Assembly: GCA_964599275.1 (NCBI GenBank)
Contig: CAZRFK010000002.1
Location: 95-64,094, forward strand
Reading direction: 5' to 3'
Length of the DNA stretch: 64,000 bases
Source: an uncultured Clostridia bacterium
Lineage (GTDB): Bacteria; Bacillota; Sulfobacillia; SLMV01
Shown here in pieces: positions 5,470 through 55,511 of the stretch (its first letter is position 1; each line of letters opens with the position of its first letter). The notes below the pieces were generated by a model. The model worked only from the letters and a program-made list of their open reading frames with translations, made no database searches and had not been told where the DNA came from. The translations under genes were made by a program, and so were the position numbers.

Positions 5470-6453
5470 ATGAGCAATAACGAAAGAGTGGGGCCCTACA
5501 TCAGCGAACTTTCGGCAGGACAGAGGGTCAGGGGGATTTATGGTGTGCAGAAAAAGCAGCTGCGTTCCTTTCGTGATCCAAACAAAGGACATTATCTGGA
5601 CTTGAAACTTGGAGATCTGAGCGGTTCTCTATCAGCTCGCGTCTGGGAGGATGCTCGTTCGCTGACGAATATGTTTGACGAAGGGGATGTTGTCTGTGTA
5701 CGCGGTACGGTTCAAGTGTACAGGGGGGAAAATCAGCTGACCATTGATGAAATCAGCAAGGTTGAAGCAGAGACCGTTTCTGCAGAGCGTTTTATCCCCA
5801 AAAGTCCGCGCTGTCAGCAGAAGATGCAGGAAGAGCTGTGGCAGCATATTGAATGTATTGAGGATTCACATCTGGCCGAGCTTTTGAGTCGAATGTTTGG
5901 TGATCCAGATTTTTACCGACAATATACACTCAAGCCTGCCGCTAAACAGGTGCACCACGGGTATTTGCATGGTTTATTAGAGCATTCTCTGGAGGTGGCT
6001 AATCTGGCTGCACACCATGCCCCCCAACGGGAGGAGCTCAATACTGATTTACTTTTGGCCGGTGCAATACTCCATGATGTGGGTAAGATCGAGGAATTAA
6101 AATGCACTGGAAGTATCCAGTACAGTGAGAATGGCCGCCTTTTGGGGCATGTGGCCATTGGATACAGGATAGTAAGTTCAGCTGTTGATGAAATGGATGA
6201 TTTCCCTGCACCGTTGAGCAGACACCTGAAACATTTAATCCTTTCTCATCATGGAGAACAAGAATATGGAGCACCGGTTGTGCCGCAAACTCGTGAGGCG
6301 GTAGTTCTGCATCAGGCAGACCTTTACAGTGGGAGGGCAGCCCAGGTTGCAGTAGCCAGTGAACATGCCCGCAGGAAAGGGGAGAGTTGGTCCGACTACG
6401 ACCGTCTATTGGAACGGTATATCTGGATTCCGGAAAACAAGACTCAGGACTGA
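5470..6453 (+). CDS. yhaM: 3'-5' exoribonuclease YhaM-like (OB-fold + HD domain)
   Basis: N-terminal OB-fold region and HD motif (HSLEVANLA...ILHDVGK...HH) at YhaM length (327 aa). Confidence 0.7.
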   Translation: MSNNERVGPYISELSAGQRVRGIYGVQKKQLRSFRDPNKGHYLDLKLGDLSGSLSARVWEDARSLTNMFDEGDVVCVRGTVQVYRGENQLTIDEISKVEAETVSAERFIPKSPRCQQKMQEELWQHIECIEDSHLAELLSRMFGDPDFYRQYTLKPAAKQVHHGYLHGLLEHSLEVANLAAHHAPQREELNTDLLLAGAILHDVGKIEELKCTGSIQYSENGRLLGHVAIGYRIVSSAVDEMDDFPAPLSRHLKHLILSHHGEQEYGAPVVPQTREAVVLHQADLYSGRAAQVAVASEHARRKGESWSDYDRLLERYIWIPENKTQD

Positions 6454-6465
6454 AGGGATGATATT

Positions 6466-7380
6466 TTGGTCAGCTCAACCGAGAATGGCCTTATAAATAT
6501 TTACACAAGAATTTGCGAAGTGCTGGCTGTTATTTATATGGCAGCGTACACTGGAGTGCAGGGTCGCATAGCTGTTGTATCTTATTATGGTGGTCATCCG
6601 ACAGCTGAAGGTATGGTCTTGGTGCGGAGTGTGGCCGTTGCATTTTTTCTGATGATGTTCTTTTACTGTGCAACAAAATGGCGGAGAGACGGCGGATTCT
6701 GGTCTCTTACCTTGACCTTGGCTTTTGCTATTCAGGTGTTTTCCAGCGCTTTGCAACTGATACTTTATACGCAGGGAACTCATTTGCCTCATAACTGGGT
6801 TCAAATGGCGGATATGTTCTCCGGACCGGTGGCCAGCATCTATCTTTGGTCTCTATTTCTATACTCATTATTCGTCATCCGTAGAGATATATCGGGTACC
6901 AATGCGGCGGTTTCTGAGTCTGATGATGGGTTGGAATCTCAAAATATCATCAAACTTCGAGTGAGTCCCTTTACCACCTTGCTGACAGTACTACTGATTG
7001 TGATTGTTCCCGTTCTGGTTTATCTTTCAGTGAACGGATTAATAGTTTGGCCGGTATCAGATCACCTGAGAACGTTTGCAGAAACGTGGGGTGTAGCCTT
7101 AAGCTTTTTAATTTTTGTTGGATACCTGCTGCTGCACAGAAACCTGGCCAGATCTGTGACCAGGTATATTACATTAGTTTTTGCTCTGGGAACTCTTCAC
7201 TCTGCGTCAAATCTGGTTGTATCTTCACCGCAGCTTGGGCAGATTGTTCCCTCCTGGCAGATCAGAATAGTACTTGTTACTCTTGTGAATATGATTCCAA
7301 TAGTACAGGTTTATTTCTGGCTGCAGGCAGGATTAACTGCTGATTCTGACAGCAGGCAGAGTGCGGAAACAGCTGAATGA
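6466..7380 (+). CDS. hypothetical polytopic membrane protein
   Basis: Multiple hydrophobic helices, TTG start with weak RBS; no recognisable family. Confidence 0.45.
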   Translation: MVSSTENGLINIYTRICEVLAVIYMAAYTGVQGRIAVVSYYGGHPTAEGMVLVRSVAVAFFLMMFFYCATKWRRDGGFWSLTLTLAFAIQVFSSALQLILYTQGTHLPHNWVQMADMFSGPVASIYLWSLFLYSLFVIRRDISGTNAAVSESDDGLESQNIIKLRVSPFTTLLTVLLIVIVPVLVYLSVNGLIVWPVSDHLRTFAETWGVALSFLIFVGYLLLHRNLARSVTRYITLVFALGTLHSASNLVVSSPQLGQIVPSWQIRIVLVTLVNMIPIVQVYFWLQAGLTADSDSRQSAETAE

Positions 7381-12949: not shown

Positions 12950-15133
12950 TTGTCGTTAAAAAGAAGGTTTTTCAAGGTAATAAGTGCTGGAATAATAATT
13001 TTACTTTTGAGTAACTTCGTAGGCGGCGGCCGTGTTTCTGCATATAATCCCTCAGCAGAAGGAGTATTTGTGGTTGCGTCATCACCCTACAATGATGTCT
13101 CGGAACTAACCAAGGCCCTGGAAGAACTGGGATTTTGTTCGCACAAAGGGACGCTAAAATTGCTACCACTCAGTGGTTCTTTCGCTGATAAGGTGGCCCA
13201 ATTGAAAGATTATGAACGAACAGAACTGCCAGATGGTTTGCAGTGGAGAATTGTGTCTGTTGGAGGCAGTTCACTGCCAGTGCGGTGGTGGCTGACGGAG
13301 GAAGGGACAAGCAGCCGAGTTTCACAGGTTGTGTATGTGGCAGCACCGAATAAGGGTTCGGTTACCGCAGAGATGATATATGGTGAACTTCGTTCGCAGG
13401 GGGCATTGCAGTATCGAAGTGCTACCGGGTTGCAGCGCCGAACACGCGATCCTCAGTGGTCACGCCCTGCCTTTACCACTATTGATGAATATTTGGCCCT
13501 CCGGGGCAGAAATCTTTTTGAACCGCTTTATTATCAGTTCTTGGTCAGAGAGAAGCTATCCCTGGAGTCAACTGGTCCCGAGAGTGCAAGAAGTTTCTTT
13601 GGATGGTTGGCAATGAATTATCCTGCGAGGTTGGCTAATTATCTATCAGATGCAGAGACTCCTTTACAATGGGACGGGAGAATCAAAGGACTTCATTCAG
13701 GGTCACCCGGTAGAATGCTTACCTGGGGCTATCTGGATTTTCTATCCGCAGCGGCCGCCCGCTACTCATATACCACATCAATTGCTCCCCAGAAAGTTCT
13801 GACCGAGGATATCATCACTGATATCCCCGTGGTTGGCGACTGGCGGGCTGCTGTTTTGGAGTTTGTTCGGCGAAGGTTAACCAGATTTGCTCGCCAGTAT
13901 GTTTTACCCCGGTTGGGAATATGGAGTCGTCATCGAGCTTTGAACTGGCTGCAGGAACAGATGCACGTCAATGAGAATACACTGCTTTATCAGATTCCCG
14001 GGGAGATTTCTATCCCCTGGAGCGGGGGAGAGCTAACTATACCTGCCAACCAATTATTGTCCGATCTCAGAAAGCGAGAAGAGAATTCCACAACGCCTAC
14101 AATCCAGCAAAATGCGATAGCTTTACGGGCTCCTAATGTATTGAAGATTGCTAATGCTGATGTTGGCCCTAACGATTGGTGGACCGAGCTGCACTCGGCT
14201 TCAATGACGCCAACAGGGACTGCTTCCGGGCGTGAGGTTTTTGTGCCTGTGGGGGGAGCTGCAGGCTCAGATGAACAGGTAGCGGCAGAAGTTACCCGTA
14301 CTCTGGGCTTTCAATCTGCTTCGGCCGGTTCGATGAGGCTGTCCAGAAGGCTTCTTCAGGCAGTAGAGCATTTAATTCAGATGCTTTGGAACTCAGAGTC
14401 ATCTGAGACCAATTATAATGAAGATTATGAAGCGTACTTTGAGGATTCTATGGAGAAAGGAAGAGCGCCTGTTAAGAAGGGTAAGGCAGCAACATCGTCT
14501 GAGATGGAAGAACCTGCTGAAAGCACTTCGACTGAGCAGATTCCTCAGATTACTGCAGTTTATCGCAATAAGAATACCACCCTCAAATCACAGTCCCGCT
14601 TATACCATACCCACTGGGTCTGGGACTTTGGCAATGGAGAGAGATACGTATGTGACGACTCCAGCAATATCAGCGGTGAAAAGGTATATGAGTTTGAGGG
14701 AGCTGGACAGTATCCAGTTTCTGCAACATCTTTTGCTTCTGATGGCAGGGAATTGCAAAATCACGAATGGTTGATCACCATACCTGAAGATGCTTCTACC
14801 TATGAAAAGCTATTCCAATACAATACCGTTGAAGAGATCGTGCCGGATATTCAACTCCTCGGACCAGCAGCATGGGTAACAGGCAAACCCGCTCACTATC
14901 AGCTGGATGTTCAGGTTGATCCTCCCCAACAGGTGGAAAATCTACAGATTGTGTGTTATCCGGAATGCAGGTTTGAAGTGGTCTGGGAAAGACCTGGTGA
15001 ATTTGAAGTCAAGGGAGCGGTGAACTTGAGATACAGCTGGCGTTTTCCCGATGGAACGTCCAAATATTTCTCTGTTATCTATGTGGAGAAATGTTCAGTG
15101 GAAGTCCTGGGTACAACCTTACTTAATAGGTAG
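12950..15133 (+). CDS. large secreted hypothetical protein with C-terminal PKD-like domain
   Basis: TTG start after GGGGGAGG; signal peptide; WDFGNGE motif typical of PKD domains near residues 540-620. Confidence 0.5.
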   Translation: MSLKRRFFKVISAGIIILLLSNFVGGGRVSAYNPSAEGVFVVASSPYNDVSELTKALEELGFCSHKGTLKLLPLSGSFADKVAQLKDYERTELPDGLQWRIVSVGGSSLPVRWWLTEEGTSSRVSQVVYVAAPNKGSVTAEMIYGELRSQGALQYRSATGLQRRTRDPQWSRPAFTTIDEYLALRGRNLFEPLYYQFLVREKLSLESTGPESARSFFGWLAMNYPARLANYLSDAETPLQWDGRIKGLHSGSPGRMLTWGYLDFLSAAAARYSYTTSIAPQKVLTEDIITDIPVVGDWRAAVLEFVRRRLTRFARQYVLPRLGIWSRHRALNWLQEQMHVNENTLLYQIPGEISIPWSGGELTIPANQLLSDLRKREENSTTPTIQQNAIALRAPNVLKIANADVGPNDWWTELHSASMTPTGTASGREVFVPVGGAAGSDEQVAAEVTRTLGFQSASAGSMRLSRRLLQAVEHLIQMLWNSESSETNYNEDYEAYFEDSMEKGRAPVKKGKAATSSEMEEPAESTSTEQIPQITAVYRNKNTTLKSQSRLYHTHWVWDFGNGERYVCDDSSNISGEKVYEFEGAGQYPVSATSFASDGRELQNHEWLITIPEDASTYEKLFQYNTVEEIVPDIQLLGPAAWVTGKPAHYQLDVQVDPPQQVENLQIVCYPECRFEVVWERPGEFEVKGAVNLRYSWRFPDGTSKYFSVIYVEKCSVEVLGTTLLNR

Positions 15134-26720: not shown

Positions 26721-26795
26721 CGGGATGTGGCCCAGCTTGGTCAGGGCGCCGCGTTCGGGACGCGGAGGTCGCCAGTTCAAATCTGGCCATCCCGA
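26721..26795 (+). tRNA. tRNA-Pro (anticodon CGG)
   Basis: Manual cloverleaf: acceptor CGGGATG/CATCCCG, D-arm GCCC/GGGC, anticodon stem CCGCG/CGCGG with loop TTCGGGA (anticodon CGG, G37), T-arm GCCAG-TTCAAAT-CTGGC, discriminator A; CCA not encoded. Confidence 0.85.
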
Positions 26796-26868
26796 CACTC
26801 CTATGATTTCGATTTCAAATTCATGGTGTATTTTCTTATGTGCGTGATTACCTTCGGAGGGTAGGAAT

Positions 26869-28670: not shown

Positions 28671-29434
28671 AAAAGAAAATCCTGCACCTGTGTCATCTGT
28701 ATCCGAATACTCTGAATATGTATGGTGACCGCGGAAACGTGATGGTATTAAAAAAACGCTGCAGCTGGCGGGGTTTTTTATTGGAGATCACGGAACTGTT
28801 CGTGGGTGATGATAATATAGATTTTTCCACATTTGATTTACTGTACATAGGCGGTGGGGGGAACCGCCAGCAACAGCTAGTTTACCAGGACCTTCTGAAA
28901 CGTGCTGAAAATCTGCGATCTGCAGTGCAGCAGGGGGTAGTCCTTCTGGCTATTTCATCTGGCTTTCAACTCATGGGCATCTCTTTTGGGCCAGAAGATG
29001 GAACTGAGTATTCCGCAGTGGGAGTATTTGATGCTTACAGTATAACTGAAGGACAACATATGGTTGGGCAAGTAGTGGTAAAAAGTTCGATGCTGAAGAG
29101 CCAGCCAACCGTGGTTGGTTTTGAGAATCATTTCGGAAGAACATACCTGGGCCAGTACCCCTCTCCTTTCGGCCAGGTAATCAAGGGTATCGGAAATAAC
29201 GGAGAAGACGGCACGGATGGAGCGGTGTCATATAATGCTTTTGGAACATATCTGCATGGGGCAGTGCTTCCGAACAATCCTCATTTTGCTGATTTACTGC
29301 TCCGTCGTGCGCTGCAGCGAAGGGACGACGAGATCGAACTTACAAATTTGACCGATGAATTTGAGTGGAAGGCCCACCGTAGTGCCCTCAAACGTGCCGG
29401 GGTATCATATGGAGGAGAAGTTTTCACAGCCTGA
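28667..29434 (+). CDS. gatD: GatD-type glutamine amidotransferase partner of MurT (CobB/CobQ-like GATase), nucleophile position is Ser
   Basis: Overlaps murT stop; FIGGGG, FENH, GTYLHG motifs align to S. aureus GatD, but the ICGGYQ nucleophile elbow reads AISSGFQ. Confidence 0.8.
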   Translation: MKKKILHLCHLYPNTLNMYGDRGNVMVLKKRCSWRGFLLEITELFVGDDNIDFSTFDLLYIGGGGNRQQQLVYQDLLKRAENLRSAVQQGVVLLAISSGFQLMGISFGPEDGTEYSAVGVFDAYSITEGQHMVGQVVVKSSMLKSQPTVVGFENHFGRTYLGQYPSPFGQVIKGIGNNGEDGTDGAVSYNAFGTYLHGAVLPNNPHFADLLLRRALQRRDDEIELTNLTDEFEWKAHRSALKRAGVSYGGEVFTA

Positions 29435-30963: not shown

Positions 30964-31875
30964 ATGCGAAGTTGCGAGGTTCTCATAGTAGGTGCGGGTC
31001 CTGCTGGATTGACTACTGCCATATATACCGGTCGGTCCGGTCGTGACACTATTGTACTGGAAAAGGAAGTGCCCGGTGGGCTTGTTGCCACAACAGACGA
31101 AATAGAAAACTACCCCGGATTTCTGAACATTGGAGGGGCTGAGCTCAGTCAGCAATTTGTTCAACACGCCCAGCAGTTTGGTGCGGAGATAATCTCGGAT
31201 GCAGCGGAATCTATCAGAGAAGATGGCGATCACCAGGTGATTGTTGGGAAGAAGGACACATACCGCGCCCGTGCTGTGGTTATTGCTTCTGGCTCTGCTC
31301 CCAGGAAACTGAACGTTCCAGGAGAGGAACGGCTGGTAGGTAGTGGGGTATCTTACTGTGCCACCTGTGACGGAGCCTTTTTTGAGGGACGCGAGGTTGC
31401 ATGTGTTGGTGGAGGAGATGCAGCTGTGGGTGAGGCTGCTTATTTAACCCGTTTTGCCAACCGGGTTCACCTCATTCACCGCAGAGATCAGCTGCGGGCA
31501 GTGCAGGCAGTCCAGGAGCGCGTAATGAACAACGACAATGTGGATTTTGTTTGGAACACAGTTGTTGAGGAAATTATCGGGGATGCTATGGTTGAGGGTC
31601 TCAAATTGCGCGATGTGAAAACAGATGAAACAAGGATTCTGCCTGTCGATGGGGTCTTTATCTACATAGGTCATCGTCCTGCCACCGAATTTGTTGAAGG
31701 CGAGGTAGATTTAACTGAACAGGGTGAAGTGATAACTGATTCTGAAATGCAGACCAGTGTACCGGGGGTTTTTGCAGTGGGTGATGTTCGTCCGCGGATC
31801 CAAAAACAGATAGCCACATCAGTAGGAGATGGTGCTACAGCAGGAATGTCGATCGAACACTACCTGAGTGACTGA
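30964..31875 (+). CDS. trxB: thioredoxin-disulfide reductase
   Basis: GAGPAG FAD motif, redox-active CATC, GGGDAA NADPH motif; alternative TTG start at 30958. Confidence 0.88.
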   Translation: MRSCEVLIVGAGPAGLTTAIYTGRSGRDTIVLEKEVPGGLVATTDEIENYPGFLNIGGAELSQQFVQHAQQFGAEIISDAAESIREDGDHQVIVGKKDTYRARAVVIASGSAPRKLNVPGEERLVGSGVSYCATCDGAFFEGREVACVGGGDAAVGEAAYLTRFANRVHLIHRRDQLRAVQAVQERVMNNDNVDFVWNTVVEEIIGDAMVEGLKLRDVKTDETRILPVDGVFIYIGHRPATEFVEGEVDLTEQGEVITDSEMQTSVPGVFAVGDVRPRIQKQIATSVGDGATAGMSIEHYLSD

Positions 31876-32011
31876 AGCTGACCATAATAGGTGGAGGATA
31901 ATCCATTAACCATGATATACTATAACCTGTAACATGGTATGTGGCATGAGTTGCTTGTCTGTTTTTACTGTAGCATTAAAAGGTAACGTTTGATGGTGAG
32001 GAGATAAATGC

Positions 32012-32515
32012 ATGGAGTTTGTGGGGGTTATCTCATATATTCAGGTCGGGGCCTTCCTTTTTCTCTTCGCTTATCTGGGGATAGGTTTATATCAGGTTAG
32101 ACTGGATAAGAAGGTTTGCGATTTGATGCAGGCAGAGGTCGAACTTCCTGATGGCGAAGAGGAGAACCAGGTATACAGTCATGGGAGAAGGGGGCAACCC
32201 AGTCTGGGTTTTGCTACTGAATGGGAAATGCTTTCCTGGGAAGAAAAAATTAGATATCAGAAGTTGGAAAATAAGCTTAACCGGGCAGCAGCTGTTGCCG
32301 GGTCGCTGGCATTTTTGACTGGATTCACCTGGACCTACATCGAGGTGCAGGTTGGTGCAGATGGGGGACTACCACAGGGATGGCTTATCCTTTTTTCGTT
32401 GTTATTCTTGATTGGACTGGGTATTTTATTTTGGAGTTACTATAGTAGATGGTTGGCTAAAAAGGAAGACTATCTTGATGTAAAGAGGCGGCTTGAGCGA
32501 AGGAGACGCGGTTGA
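32012..32515 (+). CDS. hypothetical membrane protein
   Basis: 167-aa ORF with GGTGAGGAG RBS and several hydrophobic segments. Confidence 0.4.
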   Translation: MEFVGVISYIQVGAFLFLFAYLGIGLYQVRLDKKVCDLMQAEVELPDGEEENQVYSHGRRGQPSLGFATEWEMLSWEEKIRYQKLENKLNRAAAVAGSLAFLTGFTWTYIEVQVGADGGLPQGWLILFSLLFLIGLGILFWSYYSRWLAKKEDYLDVKRRLERRRRG

Positions 32516-32706
32516 AGATTGCAACTAACAGGTTTTCGTGGTCAGAAGCAATATAAGTGATTTATGACAACAGGCTCTTCAGGTGTTATTCTCCGTATTC
32601 TGCCTCATCTTGGCTTTTTGAGTTTCCTGTTTACACGGATGTAAGCTCAGCAAAAACCGACATCGTCTTTCAGCTATGTTTACCAACTTGTTCGCGGAGG
32701 GATAGG

Positions 32707-33624
32707 GTGAAAGGGGTAAAAGACAGTTCGCAGATTATCTCAAAGCTGCATGAAATTGATGGGCGTGGATATGGAGCCTACAAGATTATTAGCGGGAAAT
32801 ACCGCGTGCAGGAATTCAAACTATCCATAGATTATGTTCAGGGCGATCCTTAAGCATCTCCGTCAAAGCTGCGTACCTGGACATGGAGAAGGCAGGTTTT
32901 TCTTCTGAAATGTTCAGAAATTTGGAGCGGAAGATAGGTCTGGAGAATTATCTGTTAAGGGCGTTCGACTGGTTCATTGACAGAGAAGTAAAGGGACATC
33001 GTCAGCGAAAATCGGATTGGTGGGAGTCGACTCTCCTGGACAGGATATCTTATCCAGAACTGCTGTTGAGGCATCTACACAGGAGATACAAGTTCGATTG
33101 GTGGCTGGTCAACCAGCCAAGGGAGGACGTGTTCTGGGTTCTCAGGCCGAGAAAATGCTGGTTGAAGAAATTCCAACCGTTGCCCGCCGAGCTATGAAAC
33201 ATGACAGTCTGGATGCTGATAACCTCTGGCGGTTCGTTCTCAACAGAGAAAATTCTGCTGATTTACGTCATCGCCTTGGCAGCCGTAAGGCTGTGACATT
33301 TATTGCTGATGGAGCCGATTGCTGTTGGTGGATGAGGATACAAGTGTAACCAATTTCATGATCAGGGACATGCGGATGCAGCAGCTGGTTAGTGGGGACA
33401 AGGAACTCATCATTCCTTTCATTGATCGAGTAAGACAGTTGTACAGGGAGAAAGGGATCTCAACCATCCTGGTAGTAGGTGGCTCTGGTGGTTACTTCGA
33501 TGTGGGGAACAATGTCATAATGATGGATCATTATCGTCCCCGGGATGTGACTGAAAAGGCACATAAAGTAGCGGAAAAATATCCTTCCGGCCGCCAGAAG
33601 GGAAGGAATCCCGGGAACCGTTAG
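32707..33624 (+). pseudogene. decayed gene for ABC-class ATPase (PF09818/COG3044-like): in-frame TAA after VQGDP plus >=3 frameshifts; remnant may extend to ~34023
   Basis: GTG 32707 after GGAGG gives ..LHEIDGRGYGAYK..IDYVQGDP*ASPSKLR (family has GDPFA.PSR.RV); downstream pieces in other frames carry GRVLGSQAE and LLVDEDTSVTNFMIRD.RMQ.LV; frames run 1 to 0 to 2 to 1. Confidence 0.55.
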
Positions 33625-34029
33625 GTGAGATCGCAGACAGCTCCCCCGATCCGGACAGTATTGATCCCCGGCGGAAAGGGGAGGTTCGAATTAGGACAGG
33701 GGGATCAGCACGATCCAATTTGGTCATCAAAACATAGAACTTCATCAGGTGGAACAGCTTATCGATGTCAGTAGACTCGAGCGATCGGTCAAATTTTGTA
33801 GTTCATGAAAAAATATTTTCCAGATTACCCTCAGGGAGGCGCTTTGCCGCGTCAAACAGGATATATTGATGGGGAAGGACTTGACATAATATCTCCCTTT
33901 GAGGGGTACTCTGGAGGTTTTGCCCGTCCACGTATGGTGGGGGTGGCGGCAGCCCTGAACAGACTTCGAACATTACGGTTGCATTCTGAAACTAAAAAAC
34001 AACTGATTTGGGGGAGAGACTGAGGTTCA

Positions 34030-34767
34030 ATGGCACAGCAGAACTGGGTTCGGGTGGCGGTAAGGAAAACTTCAAAAGCAGGAGTTTCGGCAAGCGGGGA
34101 TAGCGTGGATGTAGTTGAACGAGCCCGCGGGGGACTTTCCGTGATCATGGCGGATGGGCAGGGCAGTGGGCCTGCTGCGAAGCGAATAAGTAACTGGGTG
34201 GTGGCTCGTGCTGCAGCGCTGATCGCTGAGGGAGCCAGGGATGGAGCCGTTGCCCGGGCTGTTCACGACAATTTACTCGCTCTTCGTGGAGGCAAAATCG
34301 TCTGCACGCTCGCTATTATGTCTGTAGATCTCAACACCAATAGCCTGGTTATCTCGCGCAACGGAAACTCGGGAGCTTTGATTTTCGAACGGGGCGGACT
34401 GCCAAGGTGTCTCGATGAGGAAGTCCCTCCAATAGGGGTTCATCAGTTTACCAAGCCTGCAATTTTGGAAAAACGTCTGCATCCTGGTGATTGTGCGGCT
34501 ATCTTTACTGATGGTATATGCAGGATACAGGACGATGGAGGCAGCCTGGAGCTGGACATGCTGAAAGAGCAGATGATTGGTGCGGTTCAGGAGCATCCAC
34601 CTCCGAGTGTTGAGACATTTGCTGATAGTGTATTTACCTCGGCCCTGCAGGCTGATGGAGGTAGACCTAAAGATGATATGTCCCTGGCAGCCATAACGGT
34701 CGAGGCGAGGGGAAAACAGCTTGGGGAAGCAGCCGTTCGTTCGATTGATCTGAAGTTTCCTTATTGA
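34030..34767 (+). CDS. compact PP2C-family Ser/Thr phosphatase (SpoIIE-like domain only)
   Basis: MADGQGSGPAA metal-binding motif, DG..R.. block and C-terminal DDMSLAAITV typical of PP2C/SpoIIE-domain phosphatases; 245 aa. Confidence 0.68.
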   Translation: MAQQNWVRVAVRKTSKAGVSASGDSVDVVERARGGLSVIMADGQGSGPAAKRISNWVVARAAALIAEGARDGAVARAVHDNLLALRGGKIVCTLAIMSVDLNTNSLVISRNGNSGALIFERGGLPRCLDEEVPPIGVHQFTKPAILEKRLHPGDCAAIFTDGICRIQDDGGSLELDMLKEQMIGAVQEHPPPSVETFADSVFTSALQADGGRPKDDMSLAAITVEARGKQLGEAAVRSIDLKFPY

Positions 34768-34795
34768 TACTCATTGACTCGAAAGGAGTATCTTT

Positions 34796-35149
34796 ATGGA
34801 CAAATCCCCCCGGATAGTGGTAGTGGGATGCTGCGCTTCCGGCAAGAGTACTCTGGTGAAAAATCTTCGGAAGGCGGATATTCCAGCGTTTTCTGTGGCT
34901 CAGGAACACTCTTCTGTGTCCTACATGTTTCGTCTGCGAGACCCGGACTTTGTGGTTTTCCTTGACGCCAGCTATGAAGAGCTGAGACGACGTAGGGACA
35001 TTTCATGGGGGAAAGATCGCCTGCAGGATCAAAAAAGACGCCTTGCCAAGGCCAAACATGTGGCTGATATTCATATTAACACTGACCAGATGACTCCCGG
35101 GCAGGTTTCAGATCTGGTACTTAAATTGTTAGAAGAGAATGAAAGTTGA
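34796..35149 (+). CDS. 117-aa mini P-loop NTPase (nucleotide-kinase-like fold)
   Basis: Walker A GCCASGKST at residues 11-19, hydrophobic-Asp Walker-B-like VVFLDAS; AAAGGAG RBS. Confidence 0.5.
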   Translation: MDKSPRIVVVGCCASGKSTLVKNLRKADIPAFSVAQEHSSVSYMFRLRDPDFVVFLDASYEELRRRRDISWGKDRLQDQKRRLAKAKHVADIHINTDQMTPGQVSDLVLKLLEENES

Positions 35150-35283
35150 TTTAGTCAGCTGAACTGCACGGATGTGGAAGAAGGCATTGTTGCATCAAAC
35201 TGGAAAGTGATATGGAGTGAAGGGTAGCTATTTACTAAGTTGACATATTGCAGTTATAATTTGATGCGTGTTGTGTTGAATAA

Positions 35284-36552
35284 ATGACGAAAGGGGTAGA
35301 CAGCTTGCGACGCAAACGACGCACTCATCTTATGAGGTTTATCGCACTGATGGTGGTCGTTGTGGCCGTCGGGGGGTATTTTGGGTTTTATTCTCCCGTG
35401 TGGGATGACATTAATAAAGGTCTGGATCTCGTTGGAGGGATCCACATAGTTCTGGAAGCCCAGGATACCGAGACCACCCCGGTCACCGAAGAGGGTATGA
35501 CTTCAGCTGTAGAGGTAATCCGGCGCCGTGTCGATGCCATGGGGGTAGTTGAGCCTGTCATTGTGCGGGAAGGTGATCGCCGTATAGTGGTGAGCCTGCC
35601 CGATGTTCATGATCCAGAAGAGGCCATGGCAATGGTAGGACGCACTGCCCAACTTGAATTTCGCGATGACGACGGCAATGTTGTTCTGACCGGACGCCAC
35701 CTGGAGCGGGCACAGGCCGTTTTTCAGACGACTGAGATGGGAGCACAGGAACCCATTGTAAGTCTTGAATTTGATGCTGAGGGAACAGAAATACTTGCTG
35801 AAGCAACAGAGGAGCTTCTGGGAGAACGAATGGTCATATACCTGGATGATGAAGTGGTTCAGGCCCCGGTGGTTCGCTCCGTTATAACGGATGGTAGTCC
35901 CATAATTGAAGGTTATGATTCTTTAGAGGAAGCTCAGGAGATAGCTGTAGTTCTGAATTCTGGTGCACTGCCGATAGAACTGGAGCCGCTTCGGCCGCAG
36001 TATATCAGTGCCATGCTTGGAGAAGCATCTGTGCAGCAGAGCTGGCAGGCTGCGATAATAGCCATCACTGCCATAATTTCGTTGATGATTCTGTTTTACC
36101 GCGTACCGGGTATCTGGGCTGTGTTTTCTCTGGGATTATATCTGACATTAGTCCTTCTGATTATGGCTGGAATAAATGCCACAATGACCCTTCCCGGTCT
36201 GGCAGGGTTGATTCTGTCACTGGGTATGGCGGTTGATGCCAATGTAATTATTTTTGAAAGAATAAAAGAAGAAGTCCGGGCAGGAGCTACACCGCGAGCG
36301 GCTATCGAAAGCGGTTTTGCCAATGCTTTCAGGACTATTGTTGACGCTGATGTAACTACATTGATAGCTGGAGTTGTACTGTATTGGTTGGCTACAGGTC
36401 CGATCCGGGGATTCGCTGTTACGCTGTCGCTGGGTATATTAACCAGTATGTTTACTGCCCTGGTAATTACCCGCCTGGCGCTCATTGAGTTGGCGGGAGC
36501 CGGATTGATACGTGAAGGCTCACTGTTTTTCGGCTCGAGGGGAGGACAGTAA
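35284..36552 (+). CDS. secD: protein translocase subunit SecD
   Basis: GLDLVGG periplasmic-domain start, C-terminal 6-TM RND-like block; alternative start ATG 35332. Confidence 0.9.
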   Translation: MTKGVDSLRRKRRTHLMRFIALMVVVVAVGGYFGFYSPVWDDINKGLDLVGGIHIVLEAQDTETTPVTEEGMTSAVEVIRRRVDAMGVVEPVIVREGDRRIVVSLPDVHDPEEAMAMVGRTAQLEFRDDDGNVVLTGRHLERAQAVFQTTEMGAQEPIVSLEFDAEGTEILAEATEELLGERMVIYLDDEVVQAPVVRSVITDGSPIIEGYDSLEEAQEIAVVLNSGALPIELEPLRPQYISAMLGEASVQQSWQAAIIAITAIISLMILFYRVPGIWAVFSLGLYLTLVLLIMAGINATMTLPGLAGLILSLGMAVDANVIIFERIKEEVRAGATPRAAIESGFANAFRTIVDADVTTLIAGVVLYWLATGPIRGFAVTLSLGILTSMFTALVITRLALIELAGAGLIREGSLFFGSRGGQ

Positions 36553-46153: not shown

Positions 46154-46441
46154 TTTTGGTTGCGGTGCTGCGGGTGATATGTTATCATTTTTACACAGTT
46201 GAGAGGCACGGATAGTGTCGAATGTCGCTCAACCAAGACTTTGAAAATTCACTGTCTGCTGTGTACGTGATTGCCCCGAAATTGTTTGACCGAACACCAA
46301 TGAAACGGGAGCCTGAGCTGGTTGGTAGCGGGCACGCCTCCAGCGAGTGGACGTCCAAAGTCAACCATAGGGCACCCACTTTAACCTAGGCGGGTTAAAC
46401 AAACCGGGATTAAAACACGGCACGGTGGGCAGTTTTTCTTT

Positions 46442-54926: not shown

Positions 54927-54955
54927 GTTTTTGCAATAAATTTTTATGGGACAGG

Positions 54956-54990
54956 CCTCGCAGTGATGCTGCGGGGCTTGTATTTTTGTT
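54956..54990 (+). terminator. rho-independent terminator after iscU
   Basis: CCTCGCAG-tgatg-CTGCGGGG followed by CTTGTATTTTTGTT. Confidence 0.7.
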
Positions 54991-55114
54991 ACACGTCAAA
55001 TTTACATCAAATTTCATTTTTTTGAATTTAAAAATATGATCTGCAGAAAGATAGATACAGTATAATGCCTCCGCTTTACGGTCACTTTAATCACAGGTAA
55101 GAAGGTGTCACGAA

Positions 55115-55309
55115 ATGAACAATGACATGATGATCTGTCCCAATTGTCAGAGTCGACAGGTTGGATCTATTGCACCAAATCGTAGATTCTGCCGGAACTG
55201 CTATGTTGAATTCAAAACAGACGCAGATACTGCAAGCCCAGCAGAACAGGTCTATCTCATTGATATTGAGGGCAACTTGTTGACAGAGGAAGACATCAGG
55301 TCAACCTAA
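55115..55309 (+). CDS. small zinc-ribbon protein (CxxC...CxxC)
   Basis: 64 aa, CPNC...CRNC pairs; plausible RBS. Confidence 0.4.
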   Translation: MNNDMMICPNCQSRQVGSIAPNRRFCRNCYVEFKTDADTASPAEQVYLIDIEGNLLTEEDIRST

Positions 55310-55333
55310 ACTCAACCGTAGGAGGCGAATTAA

Positions 55334-55495
55334 ATGAGAGGCTTCATGAAAGGTATGTTGTTGGGTGGTTTTTTGGGAGCGATGGCCGCCTGGGTGATGT
55401 CACCCGACTCAATGCATAGGAGCCGGAAGAACAATACCACCATGCAGCGCATGGGTGAGAGGATGCAGAGGCTGGGAGCAAAGATTCAGGAGTAA
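55334..55495 (+). CDS. 53-aa small hydrophobic/basic protein
   Basis: GGAGG RBS 8 nt upstream; one TM segment (GMLLGGFLGAMAAWV); not in supplied ORF track because under 60 aa. Confidence 0.3.
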   Translation: MRGFMKGMLLGGFLGAMAAWVMSPDSMHRSRKNNTTMQRMGERMQRLGAKIQE

Positions 55496-55511
55496 GAGGT
55501 TAAGGTGAAAT

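Follow-up and report, generated by a model that had tools for sequence, protein, structure and literature searches.

Remnant of a COG3044-type ABC-class ATPase gene upstream of an intact SpoIIE/PP2C phosphatase gene in an uncultured Clostridia bacterium

Gene content of the locus

The window analysed here is a stretch of 64,000 nt from a contig of an uncultured Clostridia bacterium, which is known from metagenomes alone. At about its middle, the remnant of an ABC-class ATPase gene lies between two intact genes. The conserved upstream neighbour encodes a lineage-specific protein with hydrophobic stretches and no Pfam match, and the downstream neighbour encodes a SpoIIE/PP2C-type phosphatase (Pfam SpoIIE, 1.7e-20). 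The coordinates of these and the other features are collected in Table 1. We compared the neighbourhood with L001, a 42-kb contig of a 'Clostridia bacterium' metagenome-assembled genome (MAG), and found that trxB, the 167-aa protein, the SpoIIE/PP2C phosphatase, secD, secF, recJ, relA and dtd align virtually end to end with their orthologs there, at 42-84% identity. The phosphatase is 75% identical over its full length, and the 167-aa protein has a full-length ortholog that is 42% identical. These alignments confirm that the surrounding genes are intact, which agrees with what the initial annotation had said of trxB, secDF, recJ and relA. The remainder of the window is ~91% coding, with no other comparable break.

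Several other features were recorded in the window. The phosphatase gene is followed by a gene for a 117-aa P-loop protein that is conserved in L001 (57% identical) and in a second related lineage, L020, and that gave P-loop-level matches only (AAA_18, 3.9e-5; PADLOC VakA, 4.7e-6 over 23 residues). For the ATPase and the phosphatase themselves PADLOC returned no match, and thus no defence association. A full-length 6S (SsrS) RNA gene occupies a 288-nt gap after an aspS-like gene, with an Rfam score of 85.1 bits against a gathering threshold of 46.4, and a tRNA-Pro gene (CGG) is the sole tRNA gene in the 64 kb. The largest apparent non-coding gap, of 585 nt, holds two small ORFs, one of 64 aa with a zinc-ribbon-like CxxC...CxxC pattern and one of 53 aa; an Rfam scan of this gap gave no meaningful family match.

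Table 1. Features of the window, with the pieces and lesions of the ATPase remnant in order. Residue numbers are those of the closest intact ortholog, P0001.
Feature	Position	Strand	Description
tRNA-Pro (CGG)	26721-26796	+	
SNP cluster in GATase_3 gene	29133-29266		134 nt
SNP cluster in trxB	31197-31266		70 nt
167-aa protein gene	32012-32515	+	intact
ATPase remnant	32698-34023	+	
Piece 1	32698-32874	+	start mod 3 = 1; start of ABC_N; residues 20-78, 66% identity
ABC_N match, first	32707-32850	+	PF20446
Nonsense, TAA	32851-32853	+	opposite Tyr71; Tyr/Phe codon replaced (96% Phe across the family)
Frameshift 1	~32875	+	two ortholog residues reduced to 2 nt, net -1
Piece 2	32875-33002	+	phase 0; middle of ABC_N; residues 81-122, 71% identity
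Frameshift 2	~33003	+	net -1
Piece 3	33003-33310	+	phase 2; end of ABC_N and first ~35 profile positions of the P-loop domain; residues 124-228, 61% identity; contains GRVLGSQAE
ABC_N match, third	33017-33346	+	PF20446
Junction of large internal deletion	33311-33312	+	third frame change; residues 227-370 gone, ~430 nt
Piece 4	33313-33594	+	phase 1; Walker B (LLLVDED) to C-terminal third of the ABC ATPase domain; from residue 371
Walker B motif	33319-33345	+	LLLVDEDTS
ABC_ATPase match	33319-33621	+	PF09818
Walker B fragment ORF	33319-33624	+	101 aa
Frameshift 4	~33595	+	original frame meets TAG at 33622
Piece 5	33595-33692	+	phase 0; linker ...SPDPDSIDPRRKGEVRI; residues 465-495
Frameshift 5	~33693	+	1-nt loss
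Piece 6	33693-33772	+	phase 2; ISTIQFGHQNIELHQVEQLIDVS; residues 497-522
Frameshift 6	~33773	+	1-nt loss
Piece 7	33773-33825	+	phase 1; TRAIGQIL*FMKKYFPD; residues 524-540
Nonsense, TAG	33799-33801	+	opposite Glu532; Glu codon replaced
C-terminal ORF	33805-34023	+	72 aa
MRB1590_C match	33805-34020	+	PF21117
Frameshift 7	~33826	+	2-nt loss
Piece 8	33826-33862	+	phase 2; TLREALCRVKQD; residues 542-553
Frameshift 8	~33863	+	from the frameshift-aware alignment
Piece 9	33863-34023	+	phase 1; end of MRB1590_C; residues 554-596
Native stop, TGA	34021-34023	+	6 nt ahead of the phosphatase ATG
SpoIIE/PP2C-type phosphatase gene	34030-34767	+	intact, 245 aa
117-aa P-loop protein gene	34796-35149	+	
6S (SsrS) RNA gene	46250-46435	+	
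Largest apparent non-coding gap	54927-55511		585 nt
64-aa ORF	55115-55309		zinc-ribbon-like
53-aa ORF	55334-55495		

Family assignment of the remnant

Pfam scans of the ORF fragments placed the remnant in the PF20446/PF09818/PF21117 family of 'ABC-class ATPases'. The ABC_N domain (PF20446) is recognizable in three pieces that sit in three different frames, covering profile positions 3-42 (1.9e-11), 56-95 (a weak match, 0.1) and 101-160 (4.7e-13). The ABC_ATPase domain (PF09818) was matched at 1.4e-34 over profile positions 178-272 of 283 only; positions 2-35 gave a weak match and positions ~36-177 none. The MRB1590_C domain (PF21117) was matched at profile positions 63-101 (1.2e-9), with the first half of the domain scattered over three frames. 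The matches to all three profiles lie far above chance level and bear out the PF09818/COG3044-like identity proposed in the initial annotation, and both of the family blocks that it had named, GRVLGSQAE and LLVDEDTSVTNFMIRD, are present.

The Walker B motif (hhhhDE) is retained, LLLVDEDTS in the window aligning with LLVDEDTS of P0001. No complete PF09818 domain with a Walker A motif (GxxGxGK[ST]) was found, P0001 residues 227-370 with the motif GGGYHGKST being missing. A single ORF of ~570-600 codons is likewise absent: the region contains two in-frame stops and eight frame changes, and its longest ORF is 110 aa.

A search with the stitched translation of the remnant returned 6465 homologs, nearly all of them 565-600 aa long and carrying all three domains. 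The best was P0001, a protein of 596 aa encoded on L001. Members of the family also occur in Natranaerobius and Metallumcola. No intact protein more than 63% identical to the stitched ATPase was found among 5.8 billion protein clusters, and NCBIfam held no specific model for the ATPase family. In the 64-kb window tblastn with P0001 found this locus only and no second ATPase copy; it is possible that a second, intact paralog lies elsewhere in the genome, outside the visible 64 kb.

Lesion map

The lesions were mapped by frameshift-aware protein-to-DNA alignment to P0001. Because this closest intact ortholog is only ~65% identical, the exact size and nature of the small indels are uncertain (for example, a 1-nt or a 4-nt loss). 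The alignment revealed ten inactivating lesions, comprising two nonsense substitutions, seven small frame-breaking indels and one internal deletion of ~430 nt. When P0001 was compared with the window by tblastn, the match was broken into four pieces in differing frames.

A likely ancestral start is the GTG at 32707, which has GGAGG ahead of it. The initial annotation had begun the gene at 32557, a position that proved to be merely a mechanical ORF start, since homology begins at ~32698-32707. Direct translation from GTG 32707 gives VKGVKDSSQIISKLHEIDGRGYGAYKIISGKYRVQEFKLSIDYVQGDP, then the TAA, then ASPSKLR in the same frame, exactly the reading (...IDGRGYGAYK...IDYVQGDP and the in-frame stop) that had been described. 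The three frame jumps reported at ~32880, ~33020 and ~33320 were also recovered, and the frameshift-aware alignment places them at ~32875, ~33003 and 33311. This first account of the damage was sound as far as it went and had captured only about half of it: frameshifts 4 to 8 and the second stop, the TAG (Table 1), complete the ten lesions.

The large deletion is a run of 144 residues at 33311, where 2 nt are retained and the frame is altered. It takes out the central ATPase core together with Walker A, whose position in P0001 (GGGYHGKST) was set after the MRB1590 paper (PMC4538832). The hexamer GGAGCC may be shared at the junction, as a candidate microhomology. The suspicion that an additional deletion had shortened the remnant was correct; its suggested location, before the PP2C gene, was not, as the deletion is internal and the native C-terminus and terminal stop are kept.

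Reproducibility of the lesions

The source of the window is a metagenome-assembled contig of ~76 kb, and MAG contigs can contain errors. Stops and frameshifts in such a contig might be sequencing or assembly errors in a gene that is truly intact. By exact-sequence look-up of two flanking proteins, we found contigs L002, L003 and L004 in three other ENA metagenome analyses, ERZ27265998, ERZ27266004 and ERZ27266011. Against the window, L003 (8259 nt) shows 24 mismatches, no gaps and an identity of 99.71%; for L004 (6228 nt) the figures are 5 mismatches, no gaps and 99.92%. The remnant is covered in full by L003 and L004, which also encode exactly the same 167-aa protein, and L002 overlaps it over its last 15 nt only. 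Gene calling on L003 and L004 produced the same four fragments, of 48, 109, 99 and 59 aa. At least three distinguishable haplotypes have every indel and both stops in common. The three contigs represent independent assemblies and haplotypes but not independent habitats, as they may share a study or sampling site with the source MAG.

An origin by error is hard to reconcile with two separately assembled contigs that carry all of the indels and yet differ by 5-24 SNPs. Furthermore, none of the ten lesions falls within a homopolymer run, the 430-nt loss and the two point nonsense mutations are atypical as error types, and the neighbour genes are all full length. Indel errors would also leave unexplained the excess of substitutions at invariant residues described below. 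We consider an intact gene hidden by such errors highly improbable, and from these sequence comparisons assembly error as the source of the lesions is effectively ruled out. It is possible that a minority or rare intact allele exists in the population. Of the 24 SNPs on L003 and the 5 on L004, a single one in each case lies inside the remnant, numbers too small to gauge neutrality.

The SNPs between the window and L003 are clustered in two places. Nine fall in the GATase_3 gene, in eight codons, six of which change synonymously, and five fall in trxB, in four codons, with three amino-acid changes. These clusters look like short recombination tracts between population variants, not like evenly spread mutation.

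Orthologous loci

On L001 the gene order is trxB, a 168-aa protein, the ATPase (596 aa, intact), the SpoIIE phosphatase (245 aa), a small P-loop protein, secD, secF, recJ, relA, dtd and hisS, which agrees with the order in the window. We found the trxB ... ATPase-SpoIIE phosphatase ... secDF-recJ-relA locus in five related lineages. The initial annotation had pointed to such loci as the place to see whether the ATPase is intact elsewhere, and in four of the five it is, with lengths within 571-596 aa (L001, 596 aa; L018, 581 aa; L020, 571 aa; L021, 581 aa); in the fifth, L019, it is cut by the contig end. Loci L018-L021 were the four inspected from a tier of loci whose phosphatase is 56-62% identical to that of the window, and they were retrieved with the intact phosphatase as query, a choice that is unbiased with regard to the state of the ATPase. 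The gap between the ATPase and phosphatase genes measures 4-26 nt when L001 is counted with L018, L020 and L021, and 4-18 nt in the latter three. Within this clade, the ATPase thus has the phosphatase as a conserved partner on its downstream side.

Between the window's own population (100%) and L001 (75%), no relatives were found with the phosphatase as query against 5.8 billion clusters, with the stitched ATPase or among species-representative genomes, which leaves no intermediate lineage by which to date the inactivation more finely. Around more distant phosphatase homologs (Symbiobacterium, Thermomicrobiales, Chloroflexota), no ATPase was found in the flanks at 11 of 13 loci, which indicates that the pairing of the two genes is clade-specific.

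Other differences among these loci were also seen. In L014, from the more distant MAG 'bacterium isolate SBF912LR0HQ0128', an intact ATPase homolog that is 49% identical to P0001 (2442-4190) lies ~1.8 kb upstream of a phosphatase homolog (6001-6697) and does not directly adjoin it. L001 has an IS200-type Y1 transposase gene (13149-13562) between the small P-loop gene and secD that the window does not have. An extra HD-domain gene stands before secD in L018, L020 and L021, and is found neither in the window nor in L001.

Constraint and age

Next to the lesions themselves, substitutions provide a second line of evidence. For a relative-rate count, we took positions at which the outgroups L018, L020 and L021 agree and only one of the two sisters, the window or L001, has changed. 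In the ATPase remnant 30 changes were unique to the window and 7 to L001 (chi2 = 14.3, p = 1.6e-4). The corresponding counts were 4 and 3 for SpoIIE, 6 and 8 for trxB, 16 and 7 for secD, 20 and 12 for secF, and 24 and 27 for recJ, and the remnant differed from the pooled neighbours (Fisher p = 0.004). For a conservation test, the remnant was aligned with 120 intact homologs, in which 149 columns are at least 95% conserved. It has kept 76 of these columns, substituted 15 and lost 58, so that 15 of the 91 retained columns are substituted; among the intact homologs, the number of deviating columns has a median of 1 and reaches 7 at most. The substitutions at 100%-conserved positions include E153Q, R165G, A382V, P402L, T404I, R478S and E579G (P0001 numbering). 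These data show that the remnant is under relaxed constraint and that the neighbour genes are symmetric. The two rate tests, the indels common to L003 and L004 and the lack of homopolymers uphold the earlier view that this is genuine decay and not assembly noise.

The same data bear on whether the gene might be split instead of dead, with one or more fragments still translated and partly functional, for example alongside the adjacent phosphatase. Candidates would be the Walker B fragment (101 aa) and the C-terminal ORF (72 aa), both listed in Table 1. ORFs of 98-110 aa with start codons are present, identity to the ortholog remains at ~75% in the Walker B fragment, and the last ORF retains both the native stop and the spacing of 6 nt to the phosphatase gene. 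However, the loss of Walker A and of the ATPase domain core makes ATPase activity impossible for any of these products. The 72-aa ORF holds two compensating frameshifts, its first ~20 residues are off the native frame, and no Shine-Dalgarno sequence stands ahead of its ATG. In addition, A382V, P402L, T404I, D430G, D436N and E579G hit invariant residues inside the retained fragments, which argues that selection no longer acts on them. A split gene with working fragments is thus very unlikely, if slightly less so than an error in the assembly.

Programmed recoding, by ribosomal frameshifting or stop read-through, could in theory restore a full-length product, and the bare presence of frameshifts and stops is all that speaks for it. 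Eight frame changes and two stops would all need to be recoded, slippery or repeat sequences are absent at the lesion sites, ~144 residues including the P-loop are physically absent, and none of these features occurs in any relative (L001, L018-L021). We regard its probability as negligible, the lowest of all the explanations considered.

A decayed gene is the reading that we prefer. The remnant combines significant family homology with disabling lesions, related genomes carry an intact ortholog in the syntenic place, its lesions recur in contigs from two other samples, and its constraint is relaxed relative to functional orthologs and neighbour genes. We consider it very likely that the region is a real pseudogene, both fixed and fairly old, derived from a gene for a soluble ABC-class ATPase of the COG3044 type. 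As a rough inference, about 23 excess replacements over 240 sites would mean that the remnant has diverged neutrally by a few percent at the nucleotide level since it was inactivated, much more than the 0.1-0.3% of diversity seen between the sampled haplotypes. This suggests that the pseudogene is old by comparison with the population, in which it is fixed.

History and reading of the locus

The ancestor would have had a gene of ~570-600 codons between the gene for a small membrane protein and that for the SpoIIE/PP2C phosphatase, just upstream of secDF-recJ-relA, and this ATPase gene was probably co-transcribed with the phosphatase gene. In the lineage of the window it would then have been inactivated and drifted neutrally, gathering the ten lesions described above, with net losses predominating among the seven small indels. 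The loss may have been neutral or tolerated as the ATPase had become dispensable. Bacterial pseudogenes gather frameshifts and nonsense mutations and erode by net deletion, a tendency known as deletional bias. A remnant with mostly net-loss indels and a large deletion fits this bias of bacterial genomes.

No ATPase can be encoded by the remnant, because the P-loop and the central core are physically absent, so the region would do nothing as a protein-coding gene. The phosphatase is under normal constraint, as indicated by its 75% identity to the L001 ortholog and the symmetric rate test; it evidently needs no ATPase, and it must still be expressed. Its expression may be achieved by transcription through the remnant, which could still serve as a transcribed leader for the phosphatase operon. 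In the interval 31800-35400, promoter-like sites showed no excess over shuffled sequence (6 versus 5.1), and of the terminator-like sites (7 versus 2.8) none was convincingly placed.

A more far-reaching proposal is that the ATPase and the SpoIIE phosphatase form a conserved tight pair and that the window presents a natural knockout of the ATPase, with the remnant co-opted as transcribed leader or promoter region of the phosphatase operon and perhaps persisting for that reason. We offer this tentatively and think it rather unlikely as a whole. If it were true, the natural knockout would show that the phosphatase works without its ATPase partner, and would offer an initial hint at what the uncharacterised bacterial COG3044 ATPases do. 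That one lineage has dropped the ATPase yet kept the phosphatase suggests that the ATPase is not essential there.

Taken as a decayed gene, the locus matters little beyond its correct annotation. The 4-5 short 'ABC_N / ABC_ATPase / MRB1590_C' ORFs that a gene caller reports here should be merged and flagged as one pseudogene, and should not be listed as proteins. The comparison also describes a small clade of uncultured Clostridia-related bacteria in which a COG3044-type ATPase is paired with a SpoIIE/PP2C phosphatase beside secDF-recJ-relA.

Comparison with known systems

The closest known system is the bacterial 'Predicted ATPase of the ABC class' (PF20446 + PF09818 + PF21117; COG3044; PDB 5d6a), to whose structure P0001 gave a full-length match (6.6e-110). 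Parts of each of the three domains survive in the remnant in their proper order, as does Walker B. It differs from bacterial COG3044 ATPases in that about one quarter is deleted, including Walker A, the frame is broken, and there are ten lesions and 15 substituted near-invariant residues. By its sequence, the remnant is best described as a descendant of the COG3044-type family and not as a functional member, since it has neither Walker A nor a complete PF09818 domain and is without an intact ORF. In the literature searched, no function had been assigned to bacterial COG3044-type proteins.

P0001 also matched Trypanosoma brucei MRB1590 (PDB 4yix, 4yiy, 4yj1) at ~1e-100, which places it in the same ABC-ATPase fold family. 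MRB1590 is a kRNA-editing accessory factor whose Walker A motif reads GFHGKS and which also has a Walker B motif; this ABC-fold protein is a dimer, binds RNA and is a weak ATPase, and its basic pore for RNA binding includes a conserved Arg-Arg patch (PMC4538832). It is, however, a eukaryotic mitochondrial protein that acts in RNA editing, which does not occur in bacteria. The remnant has lost the Walker A region by deletion, and R165G (P0001 numbering) replaces a 100%-conserved Arg in the ...ARGRRVLG... block.

The remnant also resembles typical bacterial pseudogenes, with which it has in common net-loss indels, a larger deletion, nonsense mutations, faster substitution and intact orthologs in relatives. 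It is somewhat unusual among them as the only broken gene in 64 kb of 91%-coding sequence, and as one old enough to have gathered ten lesions while ~75% of its length persists. The remnant is, in sum, an ordinary unitary bacterial pseudogene that decayed in place, of an already-known kind and with nothing qualitatively new.
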